Source of the DNA: a virus
DNA: 64,000 nt
Reading direction: 5' to 3' (one strand)
IMG/VR virus record: IMGVR_UViG_3300023199_000051
Coordinates: 32,001 to 96,000 of that record
Shown here: piece by piece, positions 6,092 to 36,000 of the stretch
How the letters are laid out: every line of letters starts with the position of its first letter
How positions within the stretch are numbered: the first letter of the stretch is position 1
Notes under the pieces: model-generated
The model's database searches: none
Told to the model about the DNA's origin: nothing
The model's input: only the letters and a program-made list of their open reading frames with translations
Program-made: the position numbers and the translations under genes

Positions 6092-6985
6092 GGTGCGGTG
6101 CTGGCGCCGCCCCGCTGGACGCCCGGTAGGCGGTTGGGTGCCATGCGATGACTGGGTTTGATGCCTACCGGACGCCGTGAACGGAGAGTGGGGACGCTGG
6201 CGTGGGGGTCTGTACCCCTCCATCGGAGGAAGGGGGCGTTGATCGTACAGTACCTCTTCCCACGATGGCTCTGGCTCAGGGGGAGGGGGCGGAGGTGAAG
6301 CGGGCACAGGTAGAGCATGCTCTTGGGCATGGGCGTCACCCATCACGTGGATGTGGACCTCCACACCAGCCCCTGACATGAGGTCTGTGAAGATCCCCTC
6401 GATAGCGTCAGCGATCTCCCGGAAGCTGCTGTCTGGGGGTCGCTCACCGGGATGCACCGCGTGCATGTGGTGGAAGGCCCCCATGATGTCGTCCATGGCA
6501 GCCGACCGCCGATGTCGCCTTGACCGGCGGTGCCGTCCCGGCCCCCGTCCTGGCCCCCGTCCCGGCCCCTGTCCCGCCCCCCGTGCCTGCTGACTGCGCG
6601 CCTTGCGAGCCTTCGCCTCTGCTTCCCTGGCCTTCGCCTCCGCGCGCTGCTGTGCTTCTCGCGCCCTGGCTTGCTGCTCAGCCCATGCTGCAAAGCTGTC
6701 TGGGTCGAACCCGAAGCCGCTGCTGCTAGGAGGGGGAGGTGGTGGAGGGTTCTTTGGCTGCGCCTTGCGCCGCACAGCCTTGAGCCCCTTGAGATAGTCG
6801 TAGGCCGCTTGCTTCTGCTTGAACACACCCTCGTCACCGTCAGGCCGGTCGGGGTGCCATTGCTTGGCTGCCTCCTTCCACGCCTGGCGGAGCGGTCCAC
6901 TCTTCCACGCCTGGAGGTCTTGTTCGGCCGTCTTCCCCTTCAACTCCGGGGCTTCGAGACCGAGCCTCTTGAGGGCTTCGGCCAT
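5999..6985 (-). CDS. J-domain (DnaJ-like) protein with Pro/Gly-rich extension
   Basis: AWKEAAKQWHPDRPDGDEGVFKQKQAAYDYL (HPD motif) followed by SSGFGFDP. The 3' end overlaps the MazG-like gene in antisense by 93 nt, so the C-terminus is uncertain. Confidence 0.75.
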   Translation of the reverse strand: MAEALKRLGLEAPELKGKTAEQDLQAWKSGPLRQAWKEAAKQWHPDRPDGDEGVFKQKQAAYDYLKGLKAVRRKAQPKNPPPPPPPSSSGFGFDPDSFAAWAEQQARAREAQQRAEAKAREAEAKARKARSQQARGAGQGPGRGPGRGPGRHRRSRRHRRSAAMDDIMGAFHHMHAVHPGERPPDSSFREIADAIEGIFTDLMSGAGVEVHIHVMGDAHAQEHALPVPASPPPPPPEPEPSWEEVLYDQRPLPPMEGYRPPRQRPHSPFTASGRHQTQSSHGTQPPTGRPAGRRQHRTSGGRSRGRGSRGRVTLGFVGGGRGGGRGDR

Positions 6986-7047
6986 GGTGATCTTCAACGG
7001 CCCTCCTCGACTACACTGTAACGGACACACTGCACGGGAAGCTGCAT

Positions 7048-7833
7048 ATGCCTGCGATCATCCACCCGAAGTTCATCTACATCCACGTTCCGAAGTGCGG
7101 CGGCTACTACGTAGTCGAAGCGCTGAAGCGTGCTGGGATCATCGACCCAGAGCACCTGGTTGCCGCACCTACACACGTCAGCCTCTCGGATCTGTACCAG
7201 CTGTACGGCGCTGATCGCGGCCTGCCTGTGCTGGGAGGTGTCCGCAAGCCCCCGAGCTGGTATGCCTCATGGGTCCGGTACTTCTCGTGCCCTCCTGGTC
7301 ACAAGGGACCACCAGCATGGCCAGAGGCCCAGCGTGTGTGGGCTGCTGGCGGGCATGACCCAGTGCAGCTGATCAGCGCCATGTCCGACCCCACTCGCGC
7401 TGGCGTCCCCCACGAAGCCCAGCTGTACTCGGACTACACACTGCCCGTGATGTTCGGGGGCGGCTTCCGCGAACCGCTCGACGGGATGCGGCGCTGCAGC
7501 ATCGGCCTGTGCACCTGGTTCCATCTCTACGCCTTCTCCACAGTGCAGCACCCTCCTGCCGAGCTGGGCGCATGGCAAGACACCGTCCGCCTCGACCACG
7601 CGCTCCATACCGAGCAGCTGTCCTGGAACCTGAGCAAGGCCCTGGCCCGACTTGGCATCCGAACCGACCAGGTCACCCGCGCCATCAACACCACACCGAA
7701 GCAGAACACGACGGCCTCGCATGACACCGCGGAGGACAACCCGTGGCGCGTGCGCCCCGAAGACCTGCCACCTGGCCTGGTCGATCAGATCATGCAGCGT
7801 GACCGCTTCATTGTGGAGCGGTACTACCGCTAG
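7048..7833 (+). CDS. Sulfotransferase-family (Sulfotransfer_2-like) protein
   Basis: FIYIHVPKCGG (5'-PSB-like) and VRKPPSWYASW (3'-PB-like) motifs. Confidence 0.7.
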   Translation: MPAIIHPKFIYIHVPKCGGYYVVEALKRAGIIDPEHLVAAPTHVSLSDLYQLYGADRGLPVLGGVRKPPSWYASWVRYFSCPPGHKGPPAWPEAQRVWAAGGHDPVQLISAMSDPTRAGVPHEAQLYSDYTLPVMFGGGFREPLDGMRRCSIGLCTWFHLYAFSTVQHPPAELGAWQDTVRLDHALHTEQLSWNLSKALARLGIRTDQVTRAINTTPKQNTTASHDTAEDNPWRVRPEDLPPGLVDQIMQRDRFIVERYYR

Positions 7834-8321: not shown

Positions 8322-11300
8322 TCAGCCGTCTAGCCGGTAGATCACGCCCCCAGATACCCGGCCCTCTATGGGGAGCTTGAGCTTGACCTTCCGCTGGTAG
8401 GTTCCTCGTGAAGTGCGGCCCGTCTTCACGTCAGAGCGAACCGTGATGAAGGCCGCTCCACCCGGCTTGAGGCGGTCCCGAATCTCGCGCAGCAGTCCCG
8501 CTTGTGCCTTCTTCGGCACCGTGTTGAAGACGTAGGTGGCGAGGACCGTGTTGTACTTCGTGTCTGGCAGGTCGAAGGGACCATGGCAGGGGTCGTAGCC
8601 CTTCACCTGAAGACGCTGTCCTCGCAGCCACTCCACATCCGCACCGTGCCCCGAGCCGTAGTCGAGCACCGGTCCGCGAATCAGACCACGCTCATGCAGC
8701 CACCGCACAGGCGCCGAGGACCCGTTGCGGTGCAGAGCAGTCGGACACGACCGGTCGAGGTCCGCTTCAGTCTGCGCAGCAGGCAGCCGTTCGATGGGGC
8801 CAAGGCCCTGCGCGATTTGGTCCTCGGCCTGGCTATGCGCGTGCAGGTGCTTGGTCAGCTCACGAATCTGCAGCACCGGTCTCGCCCCACCTTCAGCCAG
8901 CGCCTCGACACTGCGTAGCATCCGAAGCAGGGGGTCATGCTGCGCCACAAGCGCATCAAAGGCGCCGGGCCGCCCCAGCTGCTGTTCCAGCATTGGGAAG
9001 ACATCATCTTCCTCGCCGACGAAGTGCTGCTCGCAATCGACCCGGAGCGCGCGCATGCACTTGGTGACCCGCTCCCAGTCGCCGGCCTCCGCGTACCGGA
9101 TCAGCGCAGCACACATGCCACGGATCTCATCATGGTCGTCGGTCAACCACTTCACCGGGTTGGAACCAGGAACATAGGGGCACTTCTCCACCCCAGAGTG
9201 TCCACTCTTGTAGGCCGCGGCGACCTGCTTCAGTGCTTGCTGTGCAGGAACACCGTCCTTGATCATCTTGCTCTGCTCGCGCGCCAGCTTCGTGACGGGC
9301 TCACCGATGATGTCCTCATACGACAGGCCGGCACGACGGGCCACGTCGTAGTTGTGCCGCCGTACCGGACTGAAGGTGTCGTCCAGCGTCTGATCTGTCA
9401 GGGGGCCCATCGGCTGCACGTCAACCCAGTGCGGGCCGCCGTACTCCTGGTGGTGCTCGGGGTGGTGCTGTTGCGCCTTCACCTGCTGCGCATACCCACG
9501 CTGCACCCTCTTCACGAAGGGGGACTCCTCGATCAGATCGACCCCCCAGCCCCACTCGCGCTCATGAGACTCGCCGAACTTCGGCCGGATGGTGATGACC
9601 ACTGGCACGGCCGGCAACCCGAGCTGCATGGCCGCCGCGGCGCGGTGCCTTCCCTCGTGACTCGTGATCTGCTTCTTGTCCCGGTCGTACTGCATCCACG
9701 GCACCGGGAAGCGGTCGCCAGACCGCATGGCCTGTGTGTACTGCGCCACCTTGTCAGGCCGAAGGATATCCACGAGATGCTTCAAGGGGGTTGAGGTCAG
9801 CTCCAGGAAGGCAGTCGGCTTCAGGAGGACGTGCACCGTGTTCCGGTCGTCGTACACGATGGGGATGTTGCGCCTTCGATCTTCATAGTCGAACTGCGGG
9901 GGCACCACCTCCGGCTTGTCCTTGAACCACAGCCGCGGCGCCATCTCGGAGATGAAGGTGTAGCGGAGCGGATCTTCAGAGGGCAACGCCTCAACCGACT
10001 CCTTCAGACGCCCAACGGCCGCTGGGATGGTGTCAAGTCCGTAGACCTGCGCGACGGCGCTCCGATGCCAACCATCCCAGATGCCGATCGCCTGGCCCCT
10101 TGGGTCCTCTATGACGACGATCTCCTCGATGTCACCGCGGCGGATTGCCTCTGCCATAGCCGCAGGGTCGTAGCCCCGCTGCTCGTACGCCCACTGCTCC
10201 TCCTCGAACCATTGCTGCCAGTCGTTGAGGTGGTCGAGCTTTGCAACGGGGTACCGCTCCACGCGCCAATCCATCTCTGCGGGATCGGCCTCTGGTGGGT
10301 TGTCGTAGCGGTACGCAGACGCCCACTCGATCTCCTGTGCGGTTGCAGCGCGTGACGCTCCAGCCGGCAGCTTCTCGATCGGCACTGACGCTTGCTGATG
10401 CACACGCCAGGCAGTCACCTGCGCAAATGGGTATTCCTGCGAGTCAGTAGGCACCCAGACATCGAGAACCCACTGATCAGCTCCAGCTGGAGCCCCATCC
10501 GGCTCTCCGGGCCGGATGACAGACGCCCTGATCTGAGCTTCGGCCATCGCTAGGGGCAGGTAGTCCGATTCGTCGGTTGTGGGGCAGAGCCAGCTTCCCC
10601 ACTCTCCTTCTTCCGCCTCCCACGGGGGCTCCTCAGCCCAGCCTCCCCACCCTCGCAGCAGACAGCGCTCACCCCAACCCTCAGTGGTGACCACCCACCC
10701 ATCTTGCAAGTGCTGCTGTGTCTGAGTGCCAAGGGGTATGGACGCGCCATCAACCCCCCTCACAGCACCTAAAACGGCGCCCCACACCGTATTCGGAACG
10801 CCTGAAGGGCGCCTCTTAGGTAGTCCAGCACTTCGGTGGAGAGGGGCATAGGATCTCTGACCACCACCAACCTCGCGCATCTCCTCGAAGTAAGGGGCTG
10901 CTTCGTCCACTGCCGCTTCTACAGTAGCAGCATCGAAGCTGCGCTCAGACGCCCCCTCGATCTCCTGTGCGGTCGCGGCGGCGGGCACAGCGGTAGCTGC
11001 AGCTGGAAGGCAGTCCCGCCCATCGAAGCAGATGCCAGAGTCGAGCACATCTTGAGCTGGAAGGGCCTCGACACCCGACTTGAACTGCTCCAACTGGATG
11101 ACGGGGATGTACCGCAGTCCCAACAGGCGAGCAGCGAAGGCCCGATGCCGTCCATCTACGAACTGGCCGTCGACGAAGATGATGGGCGGCATCTGCATCG
11201 AGGGGGCTTCACCCATGTTCACACCGGCAGCGCGCCAGGCTTCGCGGGCGAAGTAGGGAGAGTCGTACTCCAGCTTGACAGCTGGCTGTTCCCACTTCAA

Positions 11301-12938
11301 GGGGTAGGCGTCTTCCAGCCAGGTGTTCAGGATCTCGCCGGCGCTGCTATGCGGCCCGAGCCCGGCGGTCTGGAGTACCTGCACGATCTCCATGACGGCC
11401 GCGGGGCCCCGCTCGTCCCAGTGCTCCTCGGCGTCAATGTTGGTGGGCATACCCTGTGAGGTGTCTGCACCTGGAAAGTGCTTGCGGATCTCACGCCACA
11501 CCTCATCCATGGGCAGGGCATCCACTGTGACGCGCGTGTCCGAAGGTAGGAAGGCAACGCCGTAGTCCGGGTCTGGCGGGAGCCCGACGTCATCGGTGAG
11601 CGCCTGGAGGATGAACCCGTCCTCCTGGAAGTGCTGCGGCAGGTCGCCCCACCGGATCGTGCGAGATGTTGCAGTGGGCAGCGTCTCGATACCCAGCTCG
11701 CGGAGTAGGGCGTCGTCCTCTGCAGCCTGGGCCTCCACCTTCAAGGCGTGCGCCATACGCATCCAGTGCAGCTCTTCTCCAGACAGCCCCAGCGTTCGCA
11801 ACTCCCCGGCGCTCAGGTCGGTGCCCAGCTCGGGCACGTCGGACCCGGGGGCGTGGCTCACGCCCAGGTCCGTGATGCGCCACTCCCCAGCCGCGTTCCG
11901 CATCACGTTGCCGCCACGGATGTCGTCGGTCCACACCCCGCGCTCAGCGAGCTGTACCAGGGCGCTCCAGAGCAGCCTCACGTTGTCCTCGATGTTGGGG
12001 GCGAAGTAGGCACTCGCCTTGGCAGTGAAGACTTCCACACCCCTACGACTGTGGCGGCCCTCGACAGCTTCGCGTGCGTCGTGCGCCATGCGACGACCGT
12101 GGTTGTCGAGGTAGCGTTCCCCCGATGATGACAAGGGCTCCAAGTGCTCCTGTACGACACCATACAGACGTCTAGGACCCTGGTACACCGATGGAAGCTC
12201 GACCCCCGGCAGTGTGGAAGGGAAGGCGAACACCAGCGGTGCCCGAGCAACGCCCTTGATACCGAGACGTCCAACGAAGGCCCAGGCCGCAGCGTCGGTG
12301 GGATCTCCGGTGATCTTCAACACCCAACCAGGATAGTCAGGCAACGCATAGGCACAGCCGTAGTTGCCGCAGCCGAGCGCCATCGGGTTGTCGTAGCCGA
12401 CGTCGAGGTCGTAGGGCTTACGCTGGAGCATGATCAGGGCGGCGCGCTGCCACTTGTTGAAGTTGTCGCTGCCCCAGTCATGCTTTCCGAGCCCCCGCGA
12501 TTCGGCATAGGTGCGGGGATTGCCCTTTGGAGGGGCGCCACGAACGGGCAGCTCCTCCTGCCTCTTCGCATACCGCTTCAGCTTCGCTGGCTCTGGTGAG
12601 TAGGCCCATGCCGCCAGGGCCAGGTGCCGGCGGGTGGGGCGGCCGTCGTCCTCCCACAGCGGCTCACGGCCCTCCTGAACCTGTGCCATGTGGCGGGCGA
12701 TGAAGGCGTTGCGGCGACTGCGCCAGTGCTGACCGCTGTGACTGTCTTCGGTGAGCTTGTCGGGGTCACCATCAGCGCGGCGGTACGCGGCGATGAAGCC
12801 TCGCTTGCTCCGTGCAACCTTGCTCACTTTGCGATCCTGCATCTGCGGGACCAGGGCTTCGACCATGGTGAGTGGCAGCCATGCACGCTCGCCGGCCGGC
12901 AGCCCCTCGGTCGTCGTTGCGGTGGAGATCAGCTTCAT
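8322..12938 (-). CDS. Polyvalent protein: unknown N-terminal domain, protein-kinase-like, ParB/Srx x3, unknown domain, hemerythrin, SAM-dependent methyltransferase
   Basis: Kinase LGCGNYGC..LKITGD..DDIRGGNVM..ITDLG. ParB motifs FVDGRHRAFAARLLG, WDGWHRSAVAQVYG, HEGRHRAAAAMQLG. Hemerythrin DDHDEI..HFVGEE..QHD..HSQAED. MTase VLDYGSGHGAD..GYDP..ATYVFNTV. Confidence 0.85.
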   Translation of the reverse strand: MKLISTATTTEGLPAGERAWLPLTMVEALVPQMQDRKVSKVARSKRGFIAAYRRADGDPDKLTEDSHSGQHWRSRRNAFIARHMAQVQEGREPLWEDDGRPTRRHLALAAWAYSPEPAKLKRYAKRQEELPVRGAPPKGNPRTYAESRGLGKHDWGSDNFNKWQRAALIMLQRKPYDLDVGYDNPMALGCGNYGCAYALPDYPGWVLKITGDPTDAAAWAFVGRLGIKGVARAPLVFAFPSTLPGVELPSVYQGPRRLYGVVQEHLEPLSSSGERYLDNHGRRMAHDAREAVEGRHSRRGVEVFTAKASAYFAPNIEDNVRLLWSALVQLAERGVWTDDIRGGNVMRNAAGEWRITDLGVSHAPGSDVPELGTDLSAGELRTLGLSGEELHWMRMAHALKVEAQAAEDDALLRELGIETLPTATSRTIRWGDLPQHFQEDGFILQALTDDVGLPPDPDYGVAFLPSDTRVTVDALPMDEVWREIRKHFPGADTSQGMPTNIDAEEHWDERGPAAVMEIVQVLQTAGLGPHSSAGEILNTWLEDAYPLKWEQPAVKLEYDSPYFAREAWRAAGVNMGEAPSMQMPPIIFVDGQFVDGRHRAFAARLLGLRYIPVIQLEQFKSGVEALPAQDVLDSGICFDGRDCLPAAATAVPAAATAQEIEGASERSFDAATVEAAVDEAAPYFEEMREVGGGQRSYAPLHRSAGLPKRRPSGVPNTVWGAVLGAVRGVDGASIPLGTQTQQHLQDGWVVTTEGWGERCLLRGWGGWAEEPPWEAEEGEWGSWLCPTTDESDYLPLAMAEAQIRASVIRPGEPDGAPAGADQWVLDVWVPTDSQEYPFAQVTAWRVHQQASVPIEKLPAGASRAATAQEIEWASAYRYDNPPEADPAEMDWRVERYPVAKLDHLNDWQQWFEEEQWAYEQRGYDPAAMAEAIRRGDIEEIVVIEDPRGQAIGIWDGWHRSAVAQVYGLDTIPAAVGRLKESVEALPSEDPLRYTFISEMAPRLWFKDKPEVVPPQFDYEDRRRNIPIVYDDRNTVHVLLKPTAFLELTSTPLKHLVDILRPDKVAQYTQAMRSGDRFPVPWMQYDRDKKQITSHEGRHRAAAAMQLGLPAVPVVITIRPKFGESHEREWGWGVDLIEESPFVKRVQRGYAQQVKAQQHHPEHHQEYGGPHWVDVQPMGPLTDQTLDDTFSPVRRHNYDVARRAGLSYEDIIGEPVTKLAREQSKMIKDGVPAQQALKQVAAAYKSGHSGVEKCPYVPGSNPVKWLTDDHDEIRGMCAALIRYAEAGDWERVTKCMRALRVDCEQHFVGEEDDVFPMLEQQLGRPGAFDALVAQHDPLLRMLRSVEALAEGGARPVLQIRELTKHLHAHSQAEDQIAQGLGPIERLPAAQTEADLDRSCPTALHRNGSSAPVRWLHERGLIRGPVLDYGSGHGADVEWLRGQRLQVKGYDPCHGPFDLPDTKYNTVLATYVFNTVPKKAQAGLLREIRDRLKPGGAAFITVRSDVKTGRTSRGTYQRKVKLKLPIEGRVSGGVIYRLDG

Positions 12939-12987
12939 AGAGACCAATCTAGCACTGCGGTCCCCAGCGCGCTCGGAGCTACCAGGC

Positions 12988-12993
12988 TACACT
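12988..12993 (+). promoter_or_regulatory. Possible -10 box (TACACT) of a leaderless transcript
   Basis: TACACT ends 6 nt before ATG 13000; no RBS and no clear -35. Confidence 0.35.
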
Positions 12994-12999
12994 TCTGGC

Positions 13000-14754
13000 A
13001 TGGCTACATGGTCCCTCGGTCAGCTCTTCCACTTCATTGCCACCTCGCCAAAGGTTCCAGATGACCGGCGCGAGGCGACGCTGCAGATGATTCTGTCAGA
13101 GCCGGACAAGGCCCGAGCTGCGTTTAGCGGGAAGGGGGAGATCACGAGCGCGTTCTACCCGGAGGCGGAGCTGCGGGCAGGTGCGTGCCCTGTCGGCATG
13201 GAGCACGTTGGACCCGGCGGCGAGTGTCAAGAGAAGCCCGACCTCCCGCGGTTGGCCTACAGCGAGTACGACAAGATCCTGGTGGCCTTCAGTGGTGGCA
13301 AGGACTCCGTGGCCTGCGCGCTTGCGCTGTATGAGCGGCTGGTCGATGAGGGGGTGGACCCTCGCAAGAAGATGGAGCTGTGGCACCACAACGTCGATGG
13401 CTCCGAGGACCAGCCCGTCATCTGGGACTGGCCTTGCACCGAGAGCTACTGTCGGGCCTTCGCCGAGCACCTTGGGGTCCCCTTCCTCCTGCAGTACCGC
13501 AAGGGTGGCATCCACCGCGAGATGTGGCGCACTGACCAGTGTAGTGAGGCTGTGCACTTCCAGACCTGGGAGGACGGGCAGCTCGTGTGGCGTCGGCAGA
13601 AGCGGGATGAGGAGAGGTGCAGTCGCAACACGCGGCGCCGCTTCCCTCAGGTCACCGCGAACCTCGCCACGCGGTGGTGCACGGCCTACGTCAAGATCAT
13701 GGTGGCCGAGTCCGCCATCACCAACGACGAGCGCTTCGACTATGCCACCTACACCATGGTCAGCGGTGAGCGCCGGGAGGAGTCCAACAACCGGAGCAAG
13801 TACGCCGGCAACGAGGAGCACCGCACCAACACGGCCCACCGACCAACCTGGAACAAGGTCTACGAGGTGCGCTTCCTCGACTCCGAGGGGCGTCCCCTCA
13901 AGCCAGGCAAGGCGGGCCGCAAGAAGCGTGTCGACTTCGAGCGTCACAGCGCCATCGTGCATCGTGCCCTGGGCCTTGATCCTGAGATCGGCGTGTGGCT
14001 GTTTGCCAGAGAGGACTTCGCAAAGGCGGCCCGCAGCCAGCTCGTCGAGCGTGTCCTCACTGCCCATGATGAGTACGAGACGTCACGGGGCAAGAAGAAG
14101 AAGCGAATCGAGAAGGAGGCCAAGGCCAATGTAGCGTTCACCGAACGGTGGGAGCTGGTCGAGAACTGGACCTGGGGGAAGGTGAAGAGTGGAAAGGATC
14201 CGGCGAAGGTGCGACGCGGTACCCAGCGGACGCAGAGGTACGCCGATCAGTACCGGCCTGTCATCGACTGGCTAGAAGAGGACGTCTGGGAGATCATGCG
14301 GCGCTGGGGCATCGTCCCACACCCGTGCTACTGGCTCGGGTACTCGCGGGCCAGCTGCATGACGTGCATCTTCCTCCGCGACACTGACCTCACGAACCTG
14401 CGCCAGATCGACCCCGAGCGCTTCGAGCTGCACGTCAAGATGGAGAAGGAGACGGGCTACACCGTCGACCGGGAGATCTCGCTCACCGAGCGAGCCAACC
14501 AGGGCCAGTTCTTCGTCCCACAGCCGGGGCAGGAAACCTACAGTGTGCTCGACCACAACAAGCGCGTACGCCTCGGCCGCACCGCCTTTGAAGAGCTGAC
14601 GTATGAAGAGCGGCACGTCCAATGGCCCCGGTCCATCTACGACTACTGGGAGCCCGTTGCACTCTCTCGCGGTTACACTGGTCCCATCTACACGAAGCCT
14701 GACGAGTGGTACTACCCCGCGGGCGCGTTCCGGCACAGCGGAGGACCTGACTGA
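13000..14754 (+). CDS. PAPS-reductase-family (PP-loop) protein
   Basis: ILVAFSGGKDS, RWCTAYVKIMV, VSGERREES, RPVIDWLEEDVW..HPCYWLGYSRASCMTCIF. ~120-aa basic insertion. Start is uncertain. Confidence 0.85.
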   Translation: MATWSLGQLFHFIATSPKVPDDRREATLQMILSEPDKARAAFSGKGEITSAFYPEAELRAGACPVGMEHVGPGGECQEKPDLPRLAYSEYDKILVAFSGGKDSVACALALYERLVDEGVDPRKKMELWHHNVDGSEDQPVIWDWPCTESYCRAFAEHLGVPFLLQYRKGGIHREMWRTDQCSEAVHFQTWEDGQLVWRRQKRDEERCSRNTRRRFPQVTANLATRWCTAYVKIMVAESAITNDERFDYATYTMVSGERREESNNRSKYAGNEEHRTNTAHRPTWNKVYEVRFLDSEGRPLKPGKAGRKKRVDFERHSAIVHRALGLDPEIGVWLFAREDFAKAARSQLVERVLTAHDEYETSRGKKKKRIEKEAKANVAFTERWELVENWTWGKVKSGKDPAKVRRGTQRTQRYADQYRPVIDWLEEDVWEIMRRWGIVPHPCYWLGYSRASCMTCIFLRDTDLTNLRQIDPERFELHVKMEKETGYTVDREISLTERANQGQFFVPQPGQETYSVLDHNKRVRLGRTAFEELTYEERHVQWPRSIYDYWEPVALSRGYTGPIYTKPDEWYYPAGAFRHSGGPD

Positions 14755-15200
14755 TGGCTGACACCAGCACAATCTTGATTGGACTTGGGCTCCTGGGTGC
14801 AGCAGGGGCTGTTGCATACGCCGTCTCCACTGCCAAGGAGGAGGTCGATGAGACCCGCGCGGAGTGGAAGAAGAGCAAGGAGGAGTGGAAGGAGCTGTAC
14901 CGTGAGGGGTACGAGACGGCGACTGCCCCCATCACAGCTGCGCGCGAGACGAAGGAAGCCCTCAAGAAGAAGGGGCGCGTGGTGGTGAAGTCCGTCAGGG
15001 ACACAGCGCAAGACGCAGCCTCGACCCCCGGTAAGAGGGCAGCTGCCCGCGCAGATGCACAGCTGCAAGAGGCCGTCCGCAAAGGAGCTGCGCAGTCGGC
15101 CGCGGAAGCAGCCCGCAGTCCCGAGCCCAGCTCCAGCGGATTCGGTGCCCGCCCTGCTCACTACCGCTACATCGTTCGCCGCGCACGGATCCGTGCTTGA
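14754..15200 (+). CDS. N-terminally membrane-anchored coiled-coil protein
   Basis: ILIGLGLLGAAGAVAYAV; C-terminal SGFGARPAHYRYIVRR shared with the next gene. Confidence 0.75.
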   Translation: MADTSTILIGLGLLGAAGAVAYAVSTAKEEVDETRAEWKKSKEEWKELYREGYETATAPITAARETKEALKKKGRVVVKSVRDTAQDAASTPGKRAAARADAQLQEAVRKGAAQSAAEAARSPEPSSSGFGARPAHYRYIVRRARIRA

Positions 15201-25130: not shown

Positions 25131-25529
25131 TCACCACCCCGCTTTGATGTGGTACTGCGTGCTCACCACGTTGTCGGCTCCGGCGTTGGGCCTCGACTGG
25201 TGAAACAGCGACGTCGACGGCTGCCCGACTGCCGCAGCATCCTGGTCGAAGTAGGTGGCAGCTCCTGCGTTGTCGACGGTCTCCGCAGCCGTCTCGTTCT
25301 CCACAGCCACCGCTTCTGGGTTGTTGGCCGGGTCTGACTTCCAGCCCAAGATGGGATTGACCACGGCCGCTGTGCCGCTGTCAAGGATGCACACCTGGCG
25401 CCGGACCGTTCCTCGGATGGGCATGTTCGGAATCTCGACTTCCGTTGCAGCTCCGACGTTGTCTTCCTCGATGCTGACGAAGAACTCGCCAGGCCCGATC
25501 TGCCTTGCAGTGATCTGGGTGACCGCCAT
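25131..25529 (-). CDS. Small beta-rich putative structural protein
   Basis: GAGGAG RBS; beta-strand-like composition; lies within the structural run. Confidence 0.6.
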   Translation of the reverse strand: MAVTQITARQIGPGEFFVSIEEDNVGAATEVEIPNMPIRGTVRRQVCILDSGTAAVVNPILGWKSDPANNPEAVAVENETAAETVDNAGAATYFDQDAAAVGQPSTSLFHQSRPNAGADNVVSTQYHIKAGW

Positions 25530-25567
25530 GGCCCCTCCTCAGGATCTTGTGAGTCGGGAGCGCGCGG

Positions 25568-25936
25568 CTATCCGACCAGCACGCTCACTTTGAAGCCGCC
25601 CTCGTTGACCGGCACGTTGGAGAGGTCAACGGACACGTTGACGCTGTCTGCCGAGAAGATCGGGGCGTCTGCGGGCATCTGGTTGCCCAGGCTGTTCGAC
25701 CCTCCGTCGGTGCCTGCGACGATGGAGCCGTGTACGATGCTCGGCGTGCGGCCGAGGCCGTGTGCTCCGAGGATTGCTTCGCCGGATCCGCCGTTGCCGA
25801 CCGTACCCTCGACCACAGCGAAGCCTGTGCCTGCGAGGGCGGGGATGTCCGACGTCGCCGGGATCTTGCCGGTGCCTTCCCCCACAGGGAGGTCTTCGAT
25901 GGAATGCGAATGAGGTGGAATGGTGTTGTTGGGCAT
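25568..25936 (-). CDS. Small structural protein sharing its N-terminal motif with the 19262 fibre
   Basis: IPPHSHSIEDLPVGEGTGKI versus IPPHNHSVDDLPVGKGPGKV. Confidence 0.7.
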   Translation of the reverse strand: MPNNTIPPHSHSIEDLPVGEGTGKIPATSDIPALAGTGFAVVEGTVGNGGSGEAILGAHGLGRTPSIVHGSIVAGTDGGSNSLGNQMPADAPIFSADSVNVSVDLSNVPVNEGGFKVSVLVG

Positions 25937-25945
25937 GGAAGCCTC

Positions 25946-26305
25946 CTACGCGGCGATGACACGAGAGTCGGACCGGACATCGAGCTTGACGCTGCCGTCG
26001 AAGCCGCCACCAGGGGTCAGCTGGAAGCGCACGAACTTCGGGATGGCACGCTGCAGCTCGATGTAGGCGATGCCGTTCGCGTTGATGGTGGTGGCGAACT
26101 CGGCGGGGAGATCGAACCAGGTGTTGTTGTCGATGGACCCTTGAGCCTGCACGATGACGGTGCCGGCTGTGCGTCCGGTGGTCGTGAGGACGCCGATGAG
26201 GCCACCTGCGGTGGTGTCCACCAAGGTGCCCACGGAGATGTCATCAATGACGTCAACGGTGGCGGAGTCACGCAAGGTGCGCCGAGAAGAGAGATTGACG
26301 AACAT
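25946..26305 (-). CDS. Beta-sandwich putative structural protein
   Basis: AGGAG RBS; VQAQGSIDNNTWFDL..KFVRFQL pattern. Confidence 0.65.
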   Translation of the reverse strand: MFVNLSSRRTLRDSATVDVIDDISVGTLVDTTAGGLIGVLTTTGRTAGTVIVQAQGSIDNNTWFDLPAEFATTINANGIAYIELQRAIPKFVRFQLTPGGGFDGSVKLDVRSDSRVIAA

Positions 26306-26323
26306 GGTGAAGTGCTCCTGGAG

Positions 26324-26953
26324 CTAGATGAGGTCGAAGCTGCGGTCGAAGGTCCAGTGCGTACGGAGCTGACAAGTCAGCGTGCCTCCACCCGCATCTA
26401 GGCGGAGTCGCACCTTGTCGAGGACGGGGTCGGTGATCTGCAGGTTGAAGACGCCCGCTGCGCTGATGTTGTTCTGGCGCGTGTTGGTGTCGAGCCAGTC
26501 GGCCGAGCCGTCGTTGAAGCTCGTCACGTCTGCGGTGGCGCCGCTCGTACCGCCGGTGATGGTGTTGCCGACACCGAAGACGAGGCCCGGCGAGACGGTC
26601 GTGATGAACATGGTGCCCGCGCTGTCCGGGGGCCCGGAGACGATGGCTGTGGCACCCGTGGTGCCGTCGGTGATGGTCTCGCCGTCGACGAAGGTGCCAG
26701 AGACGTTGTTGAGGACGAGCAGGGGACCTGCACCCTCCACCGCTGTCTGCACGATGGCATCGAACTGATCACCGAAGCCGTCGACGGGGTGGTCTTCCAC
26801 TTCGAGGACGAAGCCGCCCGCACCGAACCCGCCGAATCCGCGCCCGGTGGCGAACAGCTTCGCGCCAGGCGTGACCTGCGCAGATAGGGCGTCTGCAGCA
26901 GGGATGACGGTGTCTGCTTCTGTCAGCCCTTGGGGCAAGCGATCGAAGGCCAT
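26324..26953 (-). CDS. Beta-sandwich putative structural protein with internal F..GETIT..T.GATA repeat
   Basis: FVDGETITDGTTGATA and FGVGNTITGGTSGATA; AGGAG RBS. Confidence 0.65.
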   Translation of the reverse strand: MAFDRLPQGLTEADTVIPAADALSAQVTPGAKLFATGRGFGGFGAGGFVLEVEDHPVDGFGDQFDAIVQTAVEGAGPLLVLNNVSGTFVDGETITDGTTGATAIVSGPPDSAGTMFITTVSPGLVFGVGNTITGGTSGATADVTSFNDGSADWLDTNTRQNNISAAGVFNLQITDPVLDKVRLRLDAGGGTLTCQLRTHWTFDRSFDLI

Positions 26954-28696: not shown

Positions 28697-29773
28697 CTAA
28701 CCGGCATGCAGCACAGGTACGCGCGTGCTTGGTCCCGATGAGAATCCGAGATCGACGTAGACCAGCTCGCGGACGCCCGAGCTGCTCACACGGGCCATGA
28801 CGTTGTCGCTATGACCATCGGTGTACTCGATGCCCAGGTCGTACATGCAGTCGAGGGCCACCACCAGCGATGACACCTCAGTCCCCCCACGCCACGGAAT
28901 CAGGTAGTCGAGGATGCTACTCGGTGCGTCGTCCATGGCCTCCTCAACCAGCTCCTCGTACTCGTCTTGGGTCATGTCTCCACCTTCCACGTCGGCACGG
29001 CTGTCGTCCAGCGCCCACTCATCGACCCAGTCCTTCTCCCGCTTCGTCAGGGGTTCTAGCGGCTCCATGAGGATGGCATACAGCCCGGAGTCACTGAGGC
29101 CGTACACCGCGTAGATATGCACCACTCCCAGGCACTGTCCGGCCTGCATCACGGTGTGCGCATTGGCGGCTTCGGTCGGATCCCCTGTGATCTTGATTAC
29201 GTAGGGACGCCCCGCGAAGACGCACCCAAACATGCCGCACCCCTGCTGCCTCGGATCGAAACGGAAGCCCAGCTCCTGCAGCTCGAACAGGCCTCGCGCC
29301 GCCTTCTTCCTCCACGCCTTCGTCTCGCGCCGCACGGAGCCGGGCGGCTTCCTCTCACGGCCCTGGGGCGGCCTCGACCGGACGGTGCGTGTCTTGAGCT
29401 TCAGGCTCTCCACCTTTCGGCTCTCCATCCAGGCCCGTGCCTTGTCCTTGTGCTCACCCCTGGTGACAGTGGCCGTCACCTTCATAGCGGCCGCCACAGC
29501 TGCGGCGTCGTCGATCTGCCCGACCCCCGCCAGCCAGTCGGGGATGAGGTCGAGGGGCAGCACGACAGCGCCAAGGCCGGTCGCGATGGTTGCACGGGCC
29601 CACAGCGGTGTCTTGGGGTCCATCATCACGTAGTACAGCGCGACCATGTCGACGCCGAAGGGGACCTTGAGTCCTTGCCGCTTGATCCAGGGCCAGAACC
29701 GCTTCTTCACCTTGCGGATCAGCTTGCGGACCTTGCTCCTCTCCTGCGGTGTCATGTCGCGGTCAATGGCCAT
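28697..29773 (-). CDS. DUF1232 (YkvA)-protein kinase fusion
   Basis: YVMMDPKTPLWARA..LPLDLIPDWLAGVGQIDDAA; then QGCGMFGC..IKITGDPTEAA..TDGHSDNVM..YVDLG. Confidence 0.8.
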   Translation of the reverse strand: MAIDRDMTPQERSKVRKLIRKVKKRFWPWIKRQGLKVPFGVDMVALYYVMMDPKTPLWARATIATGLGAVVLPLDLIPDWLAGVGQIDDAAAVAAAMKVTATVTRGEHKDKARAWMESRKVESLKLKTRTVRSRPPQGRERKPPGSVRRETKAWRKKAARGLFELQELGFRFDPRQQGCGMFGCVFAGRPYVIKITGDPTEAANAHTVMQAGQCLGVVHIYAVYGLSDSGLYAILMEPLEPLTKREKDWVDEWALDDSRADVEGGDMTQDEYEELVEEAMDDAPSSILDYLIPWRGGTEVSSLVVALDCMYDLGIEYTDGHSDNVMARVSSSGVRELVYVDLGFSSGPSTRVPVLHAG

Positions 29774-29775
29774 GC

Positions 29776-29994
29776 TCACCCTGCCTGCATCAGCGCGCCC
29801 ATGACGTCCCCCATCTCTGGGAGCCGCCCCTCGCTGTGTACGACCGTGAACAGCTGATCCATCACCGTGTAGGAGGGATCCCCCTCCGTGATGCGGTGCT
29901 CGGTGACCCCTTCTGAAGACTGCAGGAACAGGGCGAGGCAGCCCTGTTCTCTTCGGATCCGTACTGTGACCTCTTGTACCTCTTCCACTCTCAT
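29776..29994 (-). CDS. Small hypothetical protein
   Basis: AAGGGG before ATG 29994; ends 2 nt before the next start. Confidence 0.45.
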   Translation of the reverse strand: MRVEEVQEVTVRIRREQGCLALFLQSSEGVTEHRITEGDPSYTVMDQLFTVVHSEGRLPEMGDVMGALMQAG

Positions 29995-30038
29995 CCCCCT
30001 TGATCCGCCTGCCCGAACCGGGCAGATCTCCGCCCCAT

Positions 30039-33000
30039 TCACAGCCCTTCGAGCTTGCCGACCCGCTTGCACTGGTAGCAACCTGATGCACGCTTGCACC
30101 GCACTCGGTTCCCCGCGTTCACTTGGACCTCGTTCAGCTTCTCACGGTGTCCCTGCTCGCAGGTCGTCCATACGCGAAGGGGCAGCGCTTCGAGTCGCCC
30201 GACATCGGCGCCGGCACTCTTGGACACGCCAAGGTCGATGATCTTCCAGTTGCCCTCGGCGTCCTGCATCACGTTGCCGCCGTGCAGATCGCCCCACTGC
30301 ACACCGACTTCGTTGTGTAGCGCCTCGATGGTCGAGATCACGCGCTTGTACTGCTGGAGCTGATCGCTGTCGAGCATGGCTCGGGCCCAGCCATCCAGGT
30401 TCTCCAGGGCCTCATCCAGCTCGGGATCTTGCCTGTCCCATCCACGGGTGAGGAGGATAGCAGCCAGGGACCCGGCTGCGGATGAGCCCAGGAAGTCCTC
30501 GGCTCTCCAGTCCAGCGGCTTCAGCTTCTGCTGTACGATGGCCCACAGCGGCTCGCCGTCAGGCATGGGAGTCAGCGCGTAGACGCAGTCGATGCGGGCC
30601 AGTGCGGGTAGCTCGGTCCAGTCTTCGTGATCGAGGACCACTTGTGCAGCAGCTGCCTCACTCCAGTCCGTTGTGAGCTTCACGACCTTGTCGGGATCAT
30701 TCGTCAGGTCGTAGACGCAGCCGTAGGTTCCACACCCGAGGTGCTTGTCTCCAAGCGGGTAGCCGTGCTTGGCGAGGATGCTCTTGGCCGCGCGCTCCAG
30801 CCGGGGCCACTGCGCGCGTCGCAGGTAGGCGCTGGTCGACACGACGTCATCCCCATCACCAGAGACGCGGATGCGATCGCCCCCTGCAACGCAGGCTACG
30901 GCACCAGCGGGCAGCCGCTCGATGGCACGCTGTACACCACGCTGCTGCCCCACGCGGTCTTCTGCCTCGCTGAACTTGCGGAAGGTCACCTCAACGGGGC
31001 CTTCGAGCGACCAGTCCCATTCCCAGTCCCGGGTGCCGCTTCCGAAGGCGAAGCCCGTGTCGAAGGTGACGCCGAGCCGGCGCAGCAGCTGCTCGACCTC
31101 GAAGAGGGTGCCCAGCTGCTCGCGGGTGAGGTTGGGCCCGAAGCTGATACCGACATCGACCGGACGTCCACGGTCATCATGTGCGTGACCACGCCCCGAC
31201 TGCTCGGCATCCAGCAGCATCTCGGCGAGCCTGCCCTTGAGCCGCTTCTGTGCACCCCGACGCGCCTTGTGCTCAGTCCTGCCTCGGGCGACCATGTTGC
31301 CGTGCTGGTCATACACCACCGTGTACTTGCGCGTAGCGCCTACGCGGTAGCCTGGCGGTAGTTGCGGCTTCAGAGCGCTCTCGATGGAAGACTGCGGCAC
31401 GCGGAGCGCAGCAACCTGGTCTGTCACGAGCGTCGAAGCGTCGATGACGATCTCACCAGGCCGCGGGTCGACGGGCGGCACCATGCTGGCAAATGGGTAC
31501 GGGCTGCCTTGCGGTGGGAGCACGAACACGAGCTGCTGTTCAGTCTGTGGGTTCATCAGGGCCACGAAACCGCGGGAGTGCGGCGGCGGCTCCACGCGCA
31601 CGTTGAGGAGCTTGAAGCCCACCAGCGGCGGCTTTCGACCCTGCACGCGCTCGATCAAGTCTGACAGGTAGCCCTGCTGTGTCTTCGTGAGCAGATCGAC
31701 AGAGCCAGTCCCTACAGCCGCTCTCATGCGGGGGGTTGGGCTTGTCCCCGATGTCCCTCCGTACTCAGCTTCCAGGTAGTCGAGCCAGCGGTCCGGGAAG
31801 ATGGCCGTTGGGGAGGGGACACTCTTCCTGGGAGCCTTGGGCCGCTGCCGTGCCTTGCTTGTCGCGCCGCCTGGTAGCCCCTCCGCGTAGGCTGCGTACC
31901 TCAGTCGCTTCTTCACAGGCCGTACGACGACACCGACTGCGATGGGAGACGATCGGTGTCGCCAGATCGCATTGAGCGTGCTGGCACGCTTTCGCCACTG
32001 CACTTCGTCCAGCTCCATCCCACCAAAGCCGTGCTCGGCAAGGTGCCGGCTCCACTGGCTGTTGGTGGCGAAGTCGGTGATGAGCTGTGTGACCCACTTC
32101 GTCGCTCCTGGCGGTGCGAGTGCGTCTGCATGAATCCGCTGGAAGCGTGCGGACGTGAGCGATGGCTTGTACTCGCCGGCATCCTCCCCCGGAGCCACTA
32201 CTGCGGCGGGCACGTGATCCAAGACAGGAAGCTGGTAGCCGGAGAGCTGCTTGCGGGCGTCCTGCACGGGGATGAACCCGGCCCAGTCCACCTCGTGCGG
32301 GGAGCGTAGGTTGTCCTCGGAGACCTCATCGGGCAGGTCGAGGCGCGAGGCATCCACCACCCAGTAGGTCACCTTCTTGGAGCCGTCTGCCTTGTAGACT
32401 TCGTAGGGGCCCTTGAACCCTTCCGCTTCCATGTCGAGACCCGCCTCCTCGAAGGTCTCCCGGATGGCGGCCTGCATCGCAGACTCGCTTTCCTCGACGT
32501 GGCCCTTGGGGATGGAGAAGCCCTTGCGCCAGGATCCGCCCGTAGGGTGCACCACCAGGATCTCACCGGGCCGCACGATGGCCAGCCCCGCCGAGTGGAT
32601 GACAGGAGCCGTGCGAGGTAGCTCCCCTCCTTCCTCGAACCGGTGCTTCGCTTCGGTGGCGAGCTTGTACAGAGGCGTGTCGGGGCTGTCGCCGTGCACG
32701 TCCTCCAGGTGGTCCATCCACCGCCCAGCGGCCCTCAGTGCATCCTCCTCGTCTCCGAAGCCAGCTGCGACTTCCTGGGGGATGAAGCTCGGTCCGATGG
32801 CGTAGGCCACCTCGAAGGTGTGGTCGGCGACCTCATACACCACACCCACACGAACGCGGGTGTCGTCCTCGAACACCCAGGCATGCACGACGCTGTCGTC
32901 GTAGGCAGCCGGTTCGAGCTTGCCGCGCCCCTTGTACTGGAAGCTCGGAGACAGCTGGTGGGCAGCGCTCTGGTTGTCCGCTGTCGAGCGATACCCGACG

Positions 33001-36000
33001 CGGTCCTCCTTGATGATCTCCAGCAGGATGCGGAACCAGCGGCTGTCCGAGGCAGGGCGCCCCTCGGCTTCGAGCTGTGCAATGTCGGCTGCGATCTGCG
33101 AGTAGGGCTCACCCTCACCCGCCTTGCCACGCACCCATGTGATCACGTCGCGTGCAATGTCTCCCGAGCTGCGCACCGGCAGGGACTCGGTGAACGAGGC
33201 AGCAGCAGCACGCGCAGCTGGAAGTGGCCGAGCAGTGTGCAGGTTCTCGGTGGCCGGCAGCGCTGGAAGGTTGATGGCCCTTAGTGCCTTGATCAGCTTC
33301 TTTGTGTCACGCTTCTCATCACCCTGCTCGTACTCAACGCGGTCCGACAAGACATCGAGTGTATTGTTGATAGGACCGCTGCTGGAGTAGAGGTAGCGTA
33401 GTGCCTCAGGCGTAAGAGGGATGATCCATCTGCGGTTCCTCTCTTCCGCATCCTCCATCGCTGCGACAAAGGCCTGCTTACCTTTGCTGCTGTGCTCGTG
33501 GAGAGTGTCGACCTCCAGCATAGTCCACTCGTCATAGACGTTGTCTGGCACCTTCAGGGACAGCGGCACCTGGGCTTCGTCGCCGTGCAGCCAGGAATGA
33601 ATCTCTCTGCGGACATCCGCAGAGACCTCCTTGGCACTCCTGTCGTTGTAGGGCACCGACGATGGCTTTCGGCCACGGCCTCCACGCATGACCACCCCGC
33701 CAAACGTGACGCCGCTGCTTTCCAGCCAGATGTCCATGACCGCGCCGTTCTTGAACCGCAGGTAGAGCTGTCGACGGTGCTTGTTCCGCCCGGTGCCCTT
33801 GTAGTTCTGCCGGATGCTCTTGATGCCCAGCCGCTTCTTGTACTTCTTGATCGCCTTCGAGAGCTGTCCCGTGTACTCCGCAGAGCCCACCTTGGTACTG
33901 ACTTTCCCCTGGCTCGGCACCTGCTCAAGTGGCACAATACCGAAGGTCCCCACCCAGTAGCTGCTCGGTGACACATCATAGGCAGCGTTGTCAGGGAGGT
34001 AGGCATTAATGCCGACCCGATGCGCATGGCCCTTCAGCTCAACAGGGGACACCACGATGGCGACCGCCCTGTGTAGCTGTCCGCCATGCCGCAGACCAGG
34101 CTTCACGTTCGCGATGCGCCTGATACCAATTCGGTCAGGCGAACGTGGGACTGCTATGCGGAGCCCCTGGTGGGGCTGGTCGGTGATGGTGTAGGTCCGC
34201 TTTGTCGAGCCGGGGCCTCCTCTGTCTTTCATCTTGAAGGACACCCCTCGAACCAGCTTCTCGTTGGCCTTCTCGAAGGCTGGCGCTGCAGTCGTTGCGG
34301 TTCCGGTGCCCTTGAAGCTGTCGAAGCCATGTGGTAGTGAACCCTGCTCCTCTGAAGCACGGTCAGTGAGCCACTGGACGTAGTCGAGCATGGTCTTGGT
34401 GGTGACGTTGTCATCGTCGTAGAAGGAACCATCCGGCCCCTCCAGCACACGCTGGCCACGCCGTTCCTTCACGCGCCAGCCCTCTGCAACGAGGTCACGG
34501 GCGTGCTGCTTGCGCGTCTTGAAGACGCCGGAGAGCCCGATCTGCTTGTTCAGGATCTTGATGATGCGCCCGCGCTTCATCGGGCTGAACTGGTCTGCAA
34601 ACCCGTCGGTGTCTTCTTCAGCAGCTATCTCGGCGGCTTCCGCTGCCTTTCTTGCTTGCTCTGCTGCCTCTCTGCCCTCTGCCCGCTTGGTGATCGCGTC
34701 GGCTCCCTGCAGCTGGTCCCACAGCTCGGTCAGCGTCCAGACCACCAAGCGCTGCTGCCCCGCATCGACGCCATACACACCTTCTGGCCTGCGGAGGTGA
34801 GGCGGGAAGTCTTTGGCCTCGGCATTGGCCTGCGGGTACCACTGGCTCACACTGTACTCGACGTCCCCACGCTGCCAGCTTGTTCCGACAGGGATCGCAG
34901 GCGGCTCGGGCATGGGGAGCTGCTTCTTGGTCGCTGCAAAGTCTCCTGCAGCTGCCTTGGCGGCATCCTTCGTCGTGAAGTGCACCGAGGAGTCCCCCGT
35001 CGGCCACGCACCCACAGACGGCAGTGTCTTGAGGCCTCCGTCCCGAGTCAGGTAGTGCCGGTTGTCGGGCCCCTCTGGCACCGCCTCGGATGCGAACAGC
35101 ACTCGGACCATGTACACGTTCGAGTTGGCTGCCTTGGCCCAGGCCCGCGCAACCTGAAAGCCGAGTCCGCCTTCTGGCGTGAAGATGACAGCGGTGTCCC
35201 CTCCATGCCAATCAAGCGTCAAGCTTGCCGGTTCGCGCTCCTCGATGAGGTCGAGCACGTTGTACCGTCGAGCCGCTTCGCGCCAGTCCTGCTCGTGCAT
35301 CAGGTACAGAGGCTCCCGCACCTTGTCCTCGACCCAGGTGCCATCATCGCGCTGAAAATCCACTACCCACTTGCGCTTGGGGAAGTCCCCCTCACGCTGG
35401 GTGTCGGGACCGAGACCGCGGAGCCGGTGGGGGAGCTTCTTGGTGCTGTACTCGGTGGGCCCGTACTTCTTCTTCATCTTGAAGGTAGGTGTGACGAGCT
35501 GCTCGGGCGTCAGGTGGGGATCTTCAGCCTCTTCCCCTCCTCCCGGCTCGGGCGGGGGCGGTCCCGCCTCCCAACCGAACAGCGGCCCCCACCCGTGGTC
35601 GATGACCTCCTGCTTCAGTCGGTCTGGCGGGGTCTGCTTCCGCGCCCAGCGCTTGCCGTTCCACCCGTAGCGCATCTTCTTGCCGCTGACGGTGGCGTGG
35701 ATGTTGTGCCAGGTGGCGCGGCGCCCCTTCGCACCTTCGACGACGCGCACCTTGCCGTAGACGGGCGACTCCCAGCTGCTCTCCCGATCACTGGAGCCGC
35801 TTGGTTCGGTGCGAGGCTTCGGCGGTGATGGCTGTCCGTACACGATGGCCTTGACTGTGGTCACTGGGTCAAGGGCATCACGCCAGCGACGCTCCAGGTT
35901 CCCGCCAGGGATGTACAGGGTCAGCGAGGCCGGCATGCGGGTCTCGTCGTAGGTCGGCTCCTCGGTCTGGTGGAGGCCCATGCCCCCCTTACCCATGCCG

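Follow-up and report, generated by a model that had tools for sequence, protein, structure and literature searches.

The window analysed here, a stretch of 64,000 nucleotides that corresponds to bases 32001-96000 of the virus record IMGVR_UViG_3300023199_000051, encodes on its minus strand the multidomain protein P0001, in which the short peptide E-x-L-P, mostly as [V/I]-E-x-L-P, recurs directly outside the folded modules. We read this peptide as a selected recognition signal, most likely the cutting site of a lineage-specific protease, and consider this reading of the sequences about evenly balanced between right and wrong. The complete record has 178,164 bp with direct terminal repeats and is rated 100% complete. 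Among phages and plasmids, polyvalent proteins are in widespread use as weapons. Their cutting has been proposed since 2017 and no cut sites are known for them; a conserved, lineage-specific junction peptide would offer a handle for finding the protease. Neither the motif nor linker codes in polyvalent proteins were found described in our literature searches.

Border position and conservation of the E-x-L-P peptide in P0001

The evidence supports P0001 as a polyvalent-type (multi-effector) chain of eight modules from an uncultured 178-kb virus. From the N- to the C-terminus these are a DUF6321-like domain (Module A), a mini kinase, ParB#1, a module of unknown fold, ParB#2, ParB#3, a hemerythrin and a methyltransferase, so that at least two unrelated conflict-type domains are combined (the kinase fold, three DG.HR ParB/sulfiredoxin (Srx)-like modules, hemerythrin and methyltransferase). 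An earlier description of this stretch, made without database searches and called here the sequence-only reading, had already proposed such an effector chain, and the kinase, ParB, hemerythrin and methyltransferase modules that it named were all identified. Its domain list was essentially right; the refinement concerns its first "unknown domain", which is DUF6321-like, while its second (residues 631-857) stays without identity. No peptidase domain was recognised in P0001.

The borders of the module cores were set without reference to the motif, from homologue coverage, Pfam matches and AlphaFold confidence. A phmmer search with residues 1-1200 of P0001 against 1.8 billion representative proteins returned 812 matches, and the best 150 of these, once re-aligned, covered the protein in blocks (residues 18-130, ~135/185-378, 422-626, 864-982 and ~1040-1160) with minima between them. 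Module A was delimited by 125 homologue matches, which start at residues 18-22 and end at residues 125-130. A global MAFFT alignment (residues 1-1000, 62 homologues) misaligned the domains other than the N-terminal one and was not used for folding; domain-trimmed alignments served instead for two AlphaFold models, with predicted local distance difference test (pLDDT) scores of 78 and 76, which together cover sites 1-4. In the kinase module, residues 190-370 were modelled at a pLDDT of 85-96 and matched PknB, p38 and JNK with a Foldseek probability of 1.00. The best Foldseek matches of ParB#1 were weak, yet all had the ParB/Srx fold, and eight free-standing homologues align with this module end to end. 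Residues 631-857 had zero coverage among the 150 best homologues and no ESM Atlas match. This is one of several modules here that belong to no known family, and in metagenomic proteins such unknown effector modules could be delimited automatically with the help of the motif. Close full-length relatives of P0001 were found neither in INPHARED phages, IMG/VR and GTDB genomes nor by a word-indexed protein search, and small syntenic proteins, used as another route to relatives, led to none in IMG/VR or JGI metagenomes.

Seven strict E-x-L-P copies and one variant, VEKCP, are present in P0001, and the coordinates given for all eight in the sequence-only reading are correct. By chance, 0.68-0.70 strict copies would be expected, and 0 of 3000 shuffles reached seven. 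The count alone is borderline once the approximately 8000 possible a.bc patterns are taken into account (Poisson 6.8e-6 x 8000 = ~0.05), and the unrelated tripeptide NTV is equally enriched in P0001. The case for the motif is built on three independent observations, the bias of its flanks, its position at module borders and its chance level elsewhere in the genome, and not on the count alone. Concerning the flanks, valine or isoleucine precedes the glutamate in 5/7 sites and alanine, serine, threonine or valine follows the proline in 7/7 (0/3000 shuffles for each extended pattern). As for position, all seven glutamates lie at most 8 residues from a module-core border and none inside a core; such positions make up 15.4% of P0001 (0.154^7 = 2e-6), and independent mapping of the domain boundaries thus bore out the placement of the motif at the junctions. 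The VEKCP variant also precedes a hemerythrin module in P0021 and, as IERCP, in P0005, and the junction marked by site 2 reads EERLP in P0005 and VEKLP/FERLP in P0007, both of them proteins of relatives.

In the AlphaFold models, sites 1-4 fall in coil or in segments of low confidence that adjoin confidently folded domains, and the motif sites of P0001 accordingly appear, as predicted structures go, in exposed, unstructured segments between folded units, as would be expected of processing sites. The eight free-standing ParB#1 homologues start approximately at IETLP and stop 0-8 residues before VEALP (626). A related string, VDALP (residue 475), belongs to a buried strand of the modelled ParB#1 core and is not a junction site.

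In the proteins of this genome outside its two polyvalent proteins, 18 E-x-L-P sites were counted in 41.3 thousand residues, which corresponds to chance. Only the second polyvalent protein, of 3057 aa, is also enriched, and its C-terminal 1067 aa contain four sites (0.4 expected), TESLPV at 2009, AEGLPG at 2444, IERLPA at 2765 and LEALPL at 3008, which bracket a NUDIX and a kinase module. The first 2000 residues of this protein had no ESM Atlas match.

Selection acts on the E-x-L-P peptide, not on the DNA. At 21 sites the synonymous codons follow background usage (GAG/GAA 17:4; CTG/CTC/TTG/CTT 9:8:2:2; all four proline codons), which agrees with the protein-level conservation claimed earlier from codon differences between copies. 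Only five to six residues are conserved at the sites, the flanks differ, and the motif is followed by A, V, T or S and not by a consistent start codon. This amounts to purifying selection for one particular peptide, which implies that something reads the motif. The coordinates of the modules and sites, together with the motif-bearing proteins of relatives, are listed in Table 1.

Table 1. Modules and E-x-L-P sites of P0001, other features of the window and motif-bearing proteins of related contigs. Positions are those of the window; expected values are E-x-L-P counts by chance.
Feature	Position	Strand	Description
P0001 polyvalent protein gene	8322-12947	minus	1541 aa; TTG start at 12947, ATG at 12938 the likelier start
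Site 1, TEGLP	12897-12911	minus	residues 13-17; 7 residues ahead of Module A, ~10 from the N-terminus; pLDDT ~50
Module A, DUF6321-like helical domain	12552-12887	minus	residues 21-132; Pfam DUF6321 E 6e-4 (weak, residues 53-114); pLDDT 93-98
Site 2, QEELP	12546-12560	minus	residues 130-134; ends the last helix of Module A; then linker with pLDDT <50
Mini Ser/Thr protein-kinase module	11793-12392	minus	residues ~186-385; G-loop GCGNYGCAY, VLKITGD, DIRGGN, DLG
Site 3, IETLP	11676-11690	minus	residues 420-424; coil between linker helix and first ParB#1 strand, 7 residues before ParB#1
ParB/sulfiredoxin-like module 1 (ParB#1)	11079-11666	minus	residues 428-623; DGRHR box; AlphaFold pLDDT ~90
Site 4, VEALP	11058-11072	minus	residues 626-630; where model confidence collapses after ParB#1
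Module of unknown fold, Trp-rich	10377-11057	minus	residues 631-857
Site 5, IEKLP	10365-10379	minus	residues 857-861; 6 residues before ParB#2
ParB-like module 2 (ParB#2)	10002-10358	minus	residues 864-982; DGWHR; homologue P0134 matches 864-982; weak Pfam ParB_N match
Site 6, VEALP	9981-9995	minus	residues 985-989; 4 residues past ParB#2
ParB-like module 3 (ParB#3)	9468-9830	minus	residues ~1040-1160; EGRHR; homologue coverage; PHROG DNA-binding protein match at 1091-1125
Variant site, VEKCP	9177-9191	minus	residues 1253-1257; 10 residues before hemerythrin
Hemerythrin HHE module	8814-9158	minus	residues 1264-1378; Pfam PF01814 E 3.9e-16
Site 7, IERLP	8781-8795	minus	residues 1385-1389; 8 residues past hemerythrin
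S-adenosylmethionine (SAM)-dependent methyltransferase module	8436-8678	minus	residues 1424-1504; Pfam Methyltransf_23 E 1.8e-11; no site after it
Second polyvalent protein	30039-39212	minus	3057 aa; 6 sites, 1.35 expected
GHKL-ATPase/zincin fusion	39663-42734	plus	1023 aa; T-I-E-P-V-P 15 residues before the GHKL core
P0003 (near-identical gene on JGI contig L008)			2310 aa; 9 sites, 0.97 expected; 8 are [V/I]-E-R-L-P-[V/A/T]
GNAT protein on L088			1400 aa; 6 sites, 0.43 expected; 5 are ERLP
NUDIX protein on L007			1040 aa; 4 sites, 0.36 expected; same contig as the L088 protein
P0007			693 aa; 5 sites, 0.34 expected
P0021, P0026, P0030, P0005			727-1727 aa; 2-3 sites each, 0.27-0.62 expected

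Relatives and lineage range of the motif

The 150 best homologues contain 55 E-x-L-P sites where 28 would be expected, and the surplus is concentrated in few proteins. In P0003, the most repeated 4-mers are ERLP and VERL, the sites bracket the kinase (1327/1592) and GGACT (1592/1699) modules, and seven V-E-R-L-P copies are exact while their surroundings have diverged. Over 58 sites the consensus is V-E-R-L-P-[A/V/T/S]-[A/G], with conservation at positions -1 (V/I), +1 (R), +2 (L), +3 (P) and +4 (A/V/T/S) relative to the glutamate; the position two before the glutamate carries 0.25 bit. The polyvalent proteins of the relatives also contain NUDIX, ART, GNAT and 2H phosphoesterase modules. To judge from their sequences, the motif-bearing contigs belong to viruses related to this one, because other genes and the local gene order are shared.

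Outside this group the motif is rare. More than 90% of the distant homologues of P0001's domains lack it, it was found at the borders of DUF6321-like domains in other multidomain proteins in only 2/53 cases upstream and 4/71 downstream, and the same kinase module occurs at 80 metagenomic loci with the motif in only three. The expectation that homologues would share the junction motif was thus met in the polyvalent proteins of several related viruses, which are enriched, and mostly not in distant homologues; the motif is a trait of one narrow virus lineage. In the lineage of P0002 and P0039, E-A-L-R-V(-S-G-D) stands instead before the 2H phosphoesterase and both kinase modules, which suggests a lineage-specific version of the code. 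If each phage lineage has its own linker code, this would be relevant to the annotation of giant phage proteins and to the engineering of multi-enzyme cargo.

A similarity between the N-terminal regions of the P0003-like protein and the 3057-aa protein was followed and set aside, being weak, helical and devoid of a catalytic signature. One related viral contig has a gene for an IS605 OrfB/TnpB (Cas12f-like) protein inserted among its polyvalent genes (locus L007, 6643-7941, minus strand).

Possible cleavage, candidate enzymes and other explanations

According to the reading that we favour, [V/I]-E-x-L-P-[A/V/T/S], or V-E-R-L-P in relatives, would act as a short linear signal in exposed linkers directly outside each module, and a site-specific protease of the virus lineage would recognise the peptide and cut P0001 into separate enzymes; a cut at site 1 would remove an N-terminal leader of approximately 10 residues. 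We infer that a cut occurs, together with its place in the motif, its timing and its enzyme. A site-specific protease would be the most economical reader because there are several copies per chain, including one before the first module, because the linkers are exposed and because the motif varies between lineages. Several copies, together with one before the first module, agree better with each module being released than with one address tag for the chain, and differences between lineages are what would be expected of a motif co-evolving with a lineage-specific reader. The invariant leucine would be a suitable residue for the P1' pocket of a zinc metallopeptidase, with the cut placed before it.

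Several observations weigh against cleavage. In three proteins the motif lies three to four residues after the start methionine, namely in P0005 (MHHIERCP), in a 209-aa protein of the window (26324-26953; MAFDRLP) and in the orthologue of the latter on L002 (MASDTLP), where a cut would remove almost nothing and a tag attached to the module would fit better; cases of this kind are sporadic, and the motif is lacking near the N-terminus of most free-standing proteins on the related contigs. A proline two residues after a cut glutamate, or at P2' of a cut before leucine, is tolerated by only some proteases. The claim of one motif per linker, which holds in P0001, fails in some relatives: the first 526 aa of P0003 and the stretch that joins its ART-like and NUDIX parts are free of sites, and the contig with the P0003-like gene encodes a second polyvalent protein in which there is a single site. 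Moreover, going by the sequences, the link of any protease to the motif is no stronger than gene neighbourhood; the candidate enzyme described below belongs to a family that is also conserved beside giant genes without the motif (L090, L091 and L092), and the Pfam model of the polyvalent-protein zincin, PF18818 (MPTase-PolyVal), had no match in this genome.

The sole candidate for the reader is a GHKL-ATPase/zincin fusion, whose case is circumstantial and which we propose tentatively, judging it somewhat unlikely to be the enzyme. Its GHKL part resembles the N-domains of HtpG/Hsp90 and the PHROG RIIA family, and the signature HE[LIM][AT]H...G...GH[DNS]E...RE[DE]L is present in 34/34 homologues of the family. 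No Pfam peptidase model matches the fusion, and a paralogue of it is encoded at genome 152363-153988. The gene adjoins giant multidomain genes in five independent contexts (this genome, L019, L088, L090 and L091/L092). In this genome it is divergent from the gene of the 3057-aa protein, L019 has this divergent arrangement too, at 48% identity, and on L088 a distance of 3.4 kb separates it from the two ERLP-rich proteins. In the nearest homologues of the fusion the motif stands in an N-terminal extension, 10-15 residues ahead of the GHKL core (TIEPVPIG in this genome's fusion, AERLPAD in L019, LERLPAL and IEPVPTG in P0154), with six E-x-[L/V]-P in approximately 1.2 thousand extension residues and none in the remaining 7.3 thousand, a distribution that would fit an enzyme with a self-processing site. 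A broader picture, likewise doubtful, is that of a lineage of large uncultured high-GC viruses without recognisable tailed-phage head genes and with their own polyprotein processing of injected or early effectors, in which a strict V-E-R-L-P-small code at each module of several multi-enzyme proteins would be read by a dedicated, unrecognised protease, possibly this fusion acting as an ATP-gated peptidase with the code as its own activation site.

Searches for other peptidases were negative within their scope. None of nine motif-bearing proteins showed HExxH or another embedded peptidase signature, approximately 30 neighbouring and putative virion-module proteins scanned with Pfam and PHROG revealed no protease, capsid, portal or terminase, and a Cys-His-Asp-type protein of this genome (genome 97121-98071) had no family match. 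A metzincin-like protein (genome 4476-5096, HELGHALGFGH), whose homologue abuts a polyvalent gene in L002, was considered as the processing enzyme and rejected because of its N-terminal membrane anchor, its VanY-like neighbour and its own TESLP, which is not kept in the homologue; it is probably a lysis or entry enzyme.

Alternatively, the motif could be a docking or targeting tag on the N-terminal side of modules, which would bind a partner in the capsid interior, a portal, a scaffold, a chaperone or a kinase to load or position uncut cargo. Besides the N-terminal copies of P0005 and of the small orthologous proteins whose genes lie downstream of polyvalent ones, the IEDLPVG that a 122-aa protein (25568-25936) has at residue 14 and the copy ahead of the first P0001 module would suit a tag, and so would the association of VEKCP/IERCP with the hemerythrin module in three proteins and of E-x-LP-V-x-x-G-A-P-P with the kinase module in four. 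However, one tag per protein would suffice for loading and up to nine are present, the N-terminal cases number about six where a rough estimate gives about two, at half of the junctions in P0001 it is the preceding module, rather than the following one, that the site adjoins, and no partner is known. We consider such a tag rather unlikely.

A passive boundary element, in which a Leu-Pro kink after an acidic cap would insulate the folding of modules and would have spread by copying of modules with their linkers, requires no reader at all. The two VEALP sites follow homologous ParB tails, after ParB#1 and ParB#2, and may share common descent by duplication; the string AATAQEIE[G/W]AS after two sites suggests duplication of a linker plus module start; and the ends of local alignments between motif proteins are ~2.5-3 times commoner near sites than at random positions. 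Against this, the seven exact V-E-R-L-P copies that P0003 keeps amid divergence point to purifying selection for a sequence rather than for a physical property, the motif is dispensable to most homologous multidomain proteins, and a generic linker would need no invariant glutamate, so that we regard this explanation as decidedly unlikely.

The sequence-only reading had pointed to a Glu-directed prohead protease of the T4/phiKZ type, which would be an assemblin-fold head protease cutting after glutamate inside the capsid, and this part of it was not supported. The head proteases of T4, phiKZ and SPN3US do cut after glutamate (PMC5694885), and G or S stands two residues before the glutamate in 4/8 sites. 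The T4 sites are L/I-x-E and those of phiKZ and SPN3US A/S/G-x-E, capsid and scaffold proteins as well as many head proteins contain them, and the protease is of the S77 type (PMC5694885); T4 IPI-III and Alt (cut by gp21), phiKZ gp175 and SPN3US gp245 are cargo proteins with a short N-terminal leader that ends in glutamate and is removed by the viral protease (PMC5694885, PMC10052503, PMC9026906). P0001 likewise has a leader of ~10 residues before its first site. In contrast to these substrates, the residues conserved here follow the glutamate (x-L-P-small), while the position two before it (P3) is not conserved across the lineage, and the motif is confined to polyvalent proteins, its chance frequency in the genome's other proteins arguing against a general virion maturation signal. 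In addition, PF03420, PF04586 and PF05065 (S77, S78 and HK97 capsid) gave no hit at E <= 1 when the complete genome was searched, whereas control genomes respond, and sequence-family scans gave no recognisable tailed-phage head module. A prohead protease site is thus very improbable. Lastly, a DNA-level or translational signal, either microhomology for module exchange or an internal ribosome-binding site or start, might be suggested by the GGAG-like strings in some copies (CAG GAG GAG; GTG GAG CGG) and by the clear shuffling of modules between proteins, but it is largely refuted by the background codon usage and the lack of a consistent start after the motif and has almost no likelihood left.

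Returning to cleavage by a dedicated protease, eukaryotic RNA-virus polyproteins provide an analogy, with the Glu- or Gln-directed proteases of the 3C-like, sobemovirus and arterivirus kinds as examples. In P0001, by analogy, a repeated peptide of five to six residues likewise stands at the module borders of a multi-enzyme chain. The comparison goes no further, since those polyproteins contain their protease and their domains and host kingdom are unrelated. Compared with the polyvalent proteins of phages and conjugative elements, P0001 is likewise a virus-encoded chain of unrelated conflict-type domains (PMC5512222). For these, Iyer et al. (2017) proposed processing by zincin-like peptidases and named embedded zincin, assemblin-like and other peptidases, with a zincin-like MPTase in ~36% of members, and described no cleavage or linker motif (PMC5512222). 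In P0001 no embedded peptidase is recognisable, and a divergent GHKL-zincin fusion is encoded beside the other polyvalent gene of this genome; the E-x-L-P junction peptide is a new element.

Neighbouring genes and further observations

The string AATAQEIE[G/W]AS recurs shortly after two junction sites (window 10900-11000 and 10290-10350; P0001 residues 655-680 and 866-885) and may represent a second, looser element downstream of the motif. The segment IERLPAAQTEAD of P0001 resembles the N-terminus MAFDRLPQGLTEAD of the 209-aa protein (26324-26953). The latter is one of four small beta-rich proteins of 132, 122, 119 and 209 aa (window 25131-26953, minus strand) encoded downstream of the polyvalent genes, which had no family match. 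For three of them, L002, L003 and L014 contain orthologues that follow polyvalent genes in unchanged order, and two begin with D-x-L-P or have the string IEDLPVG at residue 14.

The mini kinase of P0001 has two paralogues in this genome, giving three copies (28697-30091, 30183-30815 and 11793-12392, all on the minus strand) with a short C-lobe, a GCGxYGCAY loop and DLG; one of the three is fused to a DUF1232 membrane region. In the relatives P0065 and P0148, up to four tandem mini-kinase copies occur in one protein. Upstream of P0001, a caller based on the GC content of third codon positions (GC3) placed no gene in 2.2 kb (window 12947-15197), a segment overlapped by long open reading frames at 12751-14754 on the plus strand and 13096-14067 on the minus strand.

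A DarB-like protein of 2517 aa, composed of an Eco57I/N6 DNA methylase and an SNF2-type helicase with a LAGLIDADG intein, is encoded at 49436-56989 (minus strand) and contains zero E-x-L-P; its homologues of 2587 aa and 2038 aa adjoin the GHKL-zincin gene in L091 and L090, respectively. Outside the window, the locus L005 (genome 3254-5096) encodes a VanY-like D-Ala-D-Ala carboxypeptidase together with the membrane-anchored metzincin-like protein, and in the relatives L001 and L002 homologues of both are situated directly upstream of polyvalent genes. In the same locus, at genome positions 6468-7562 near the left genome end, a ThyX-type thymidylate synthase was identified (Pfam Thy1, E 1e-44).

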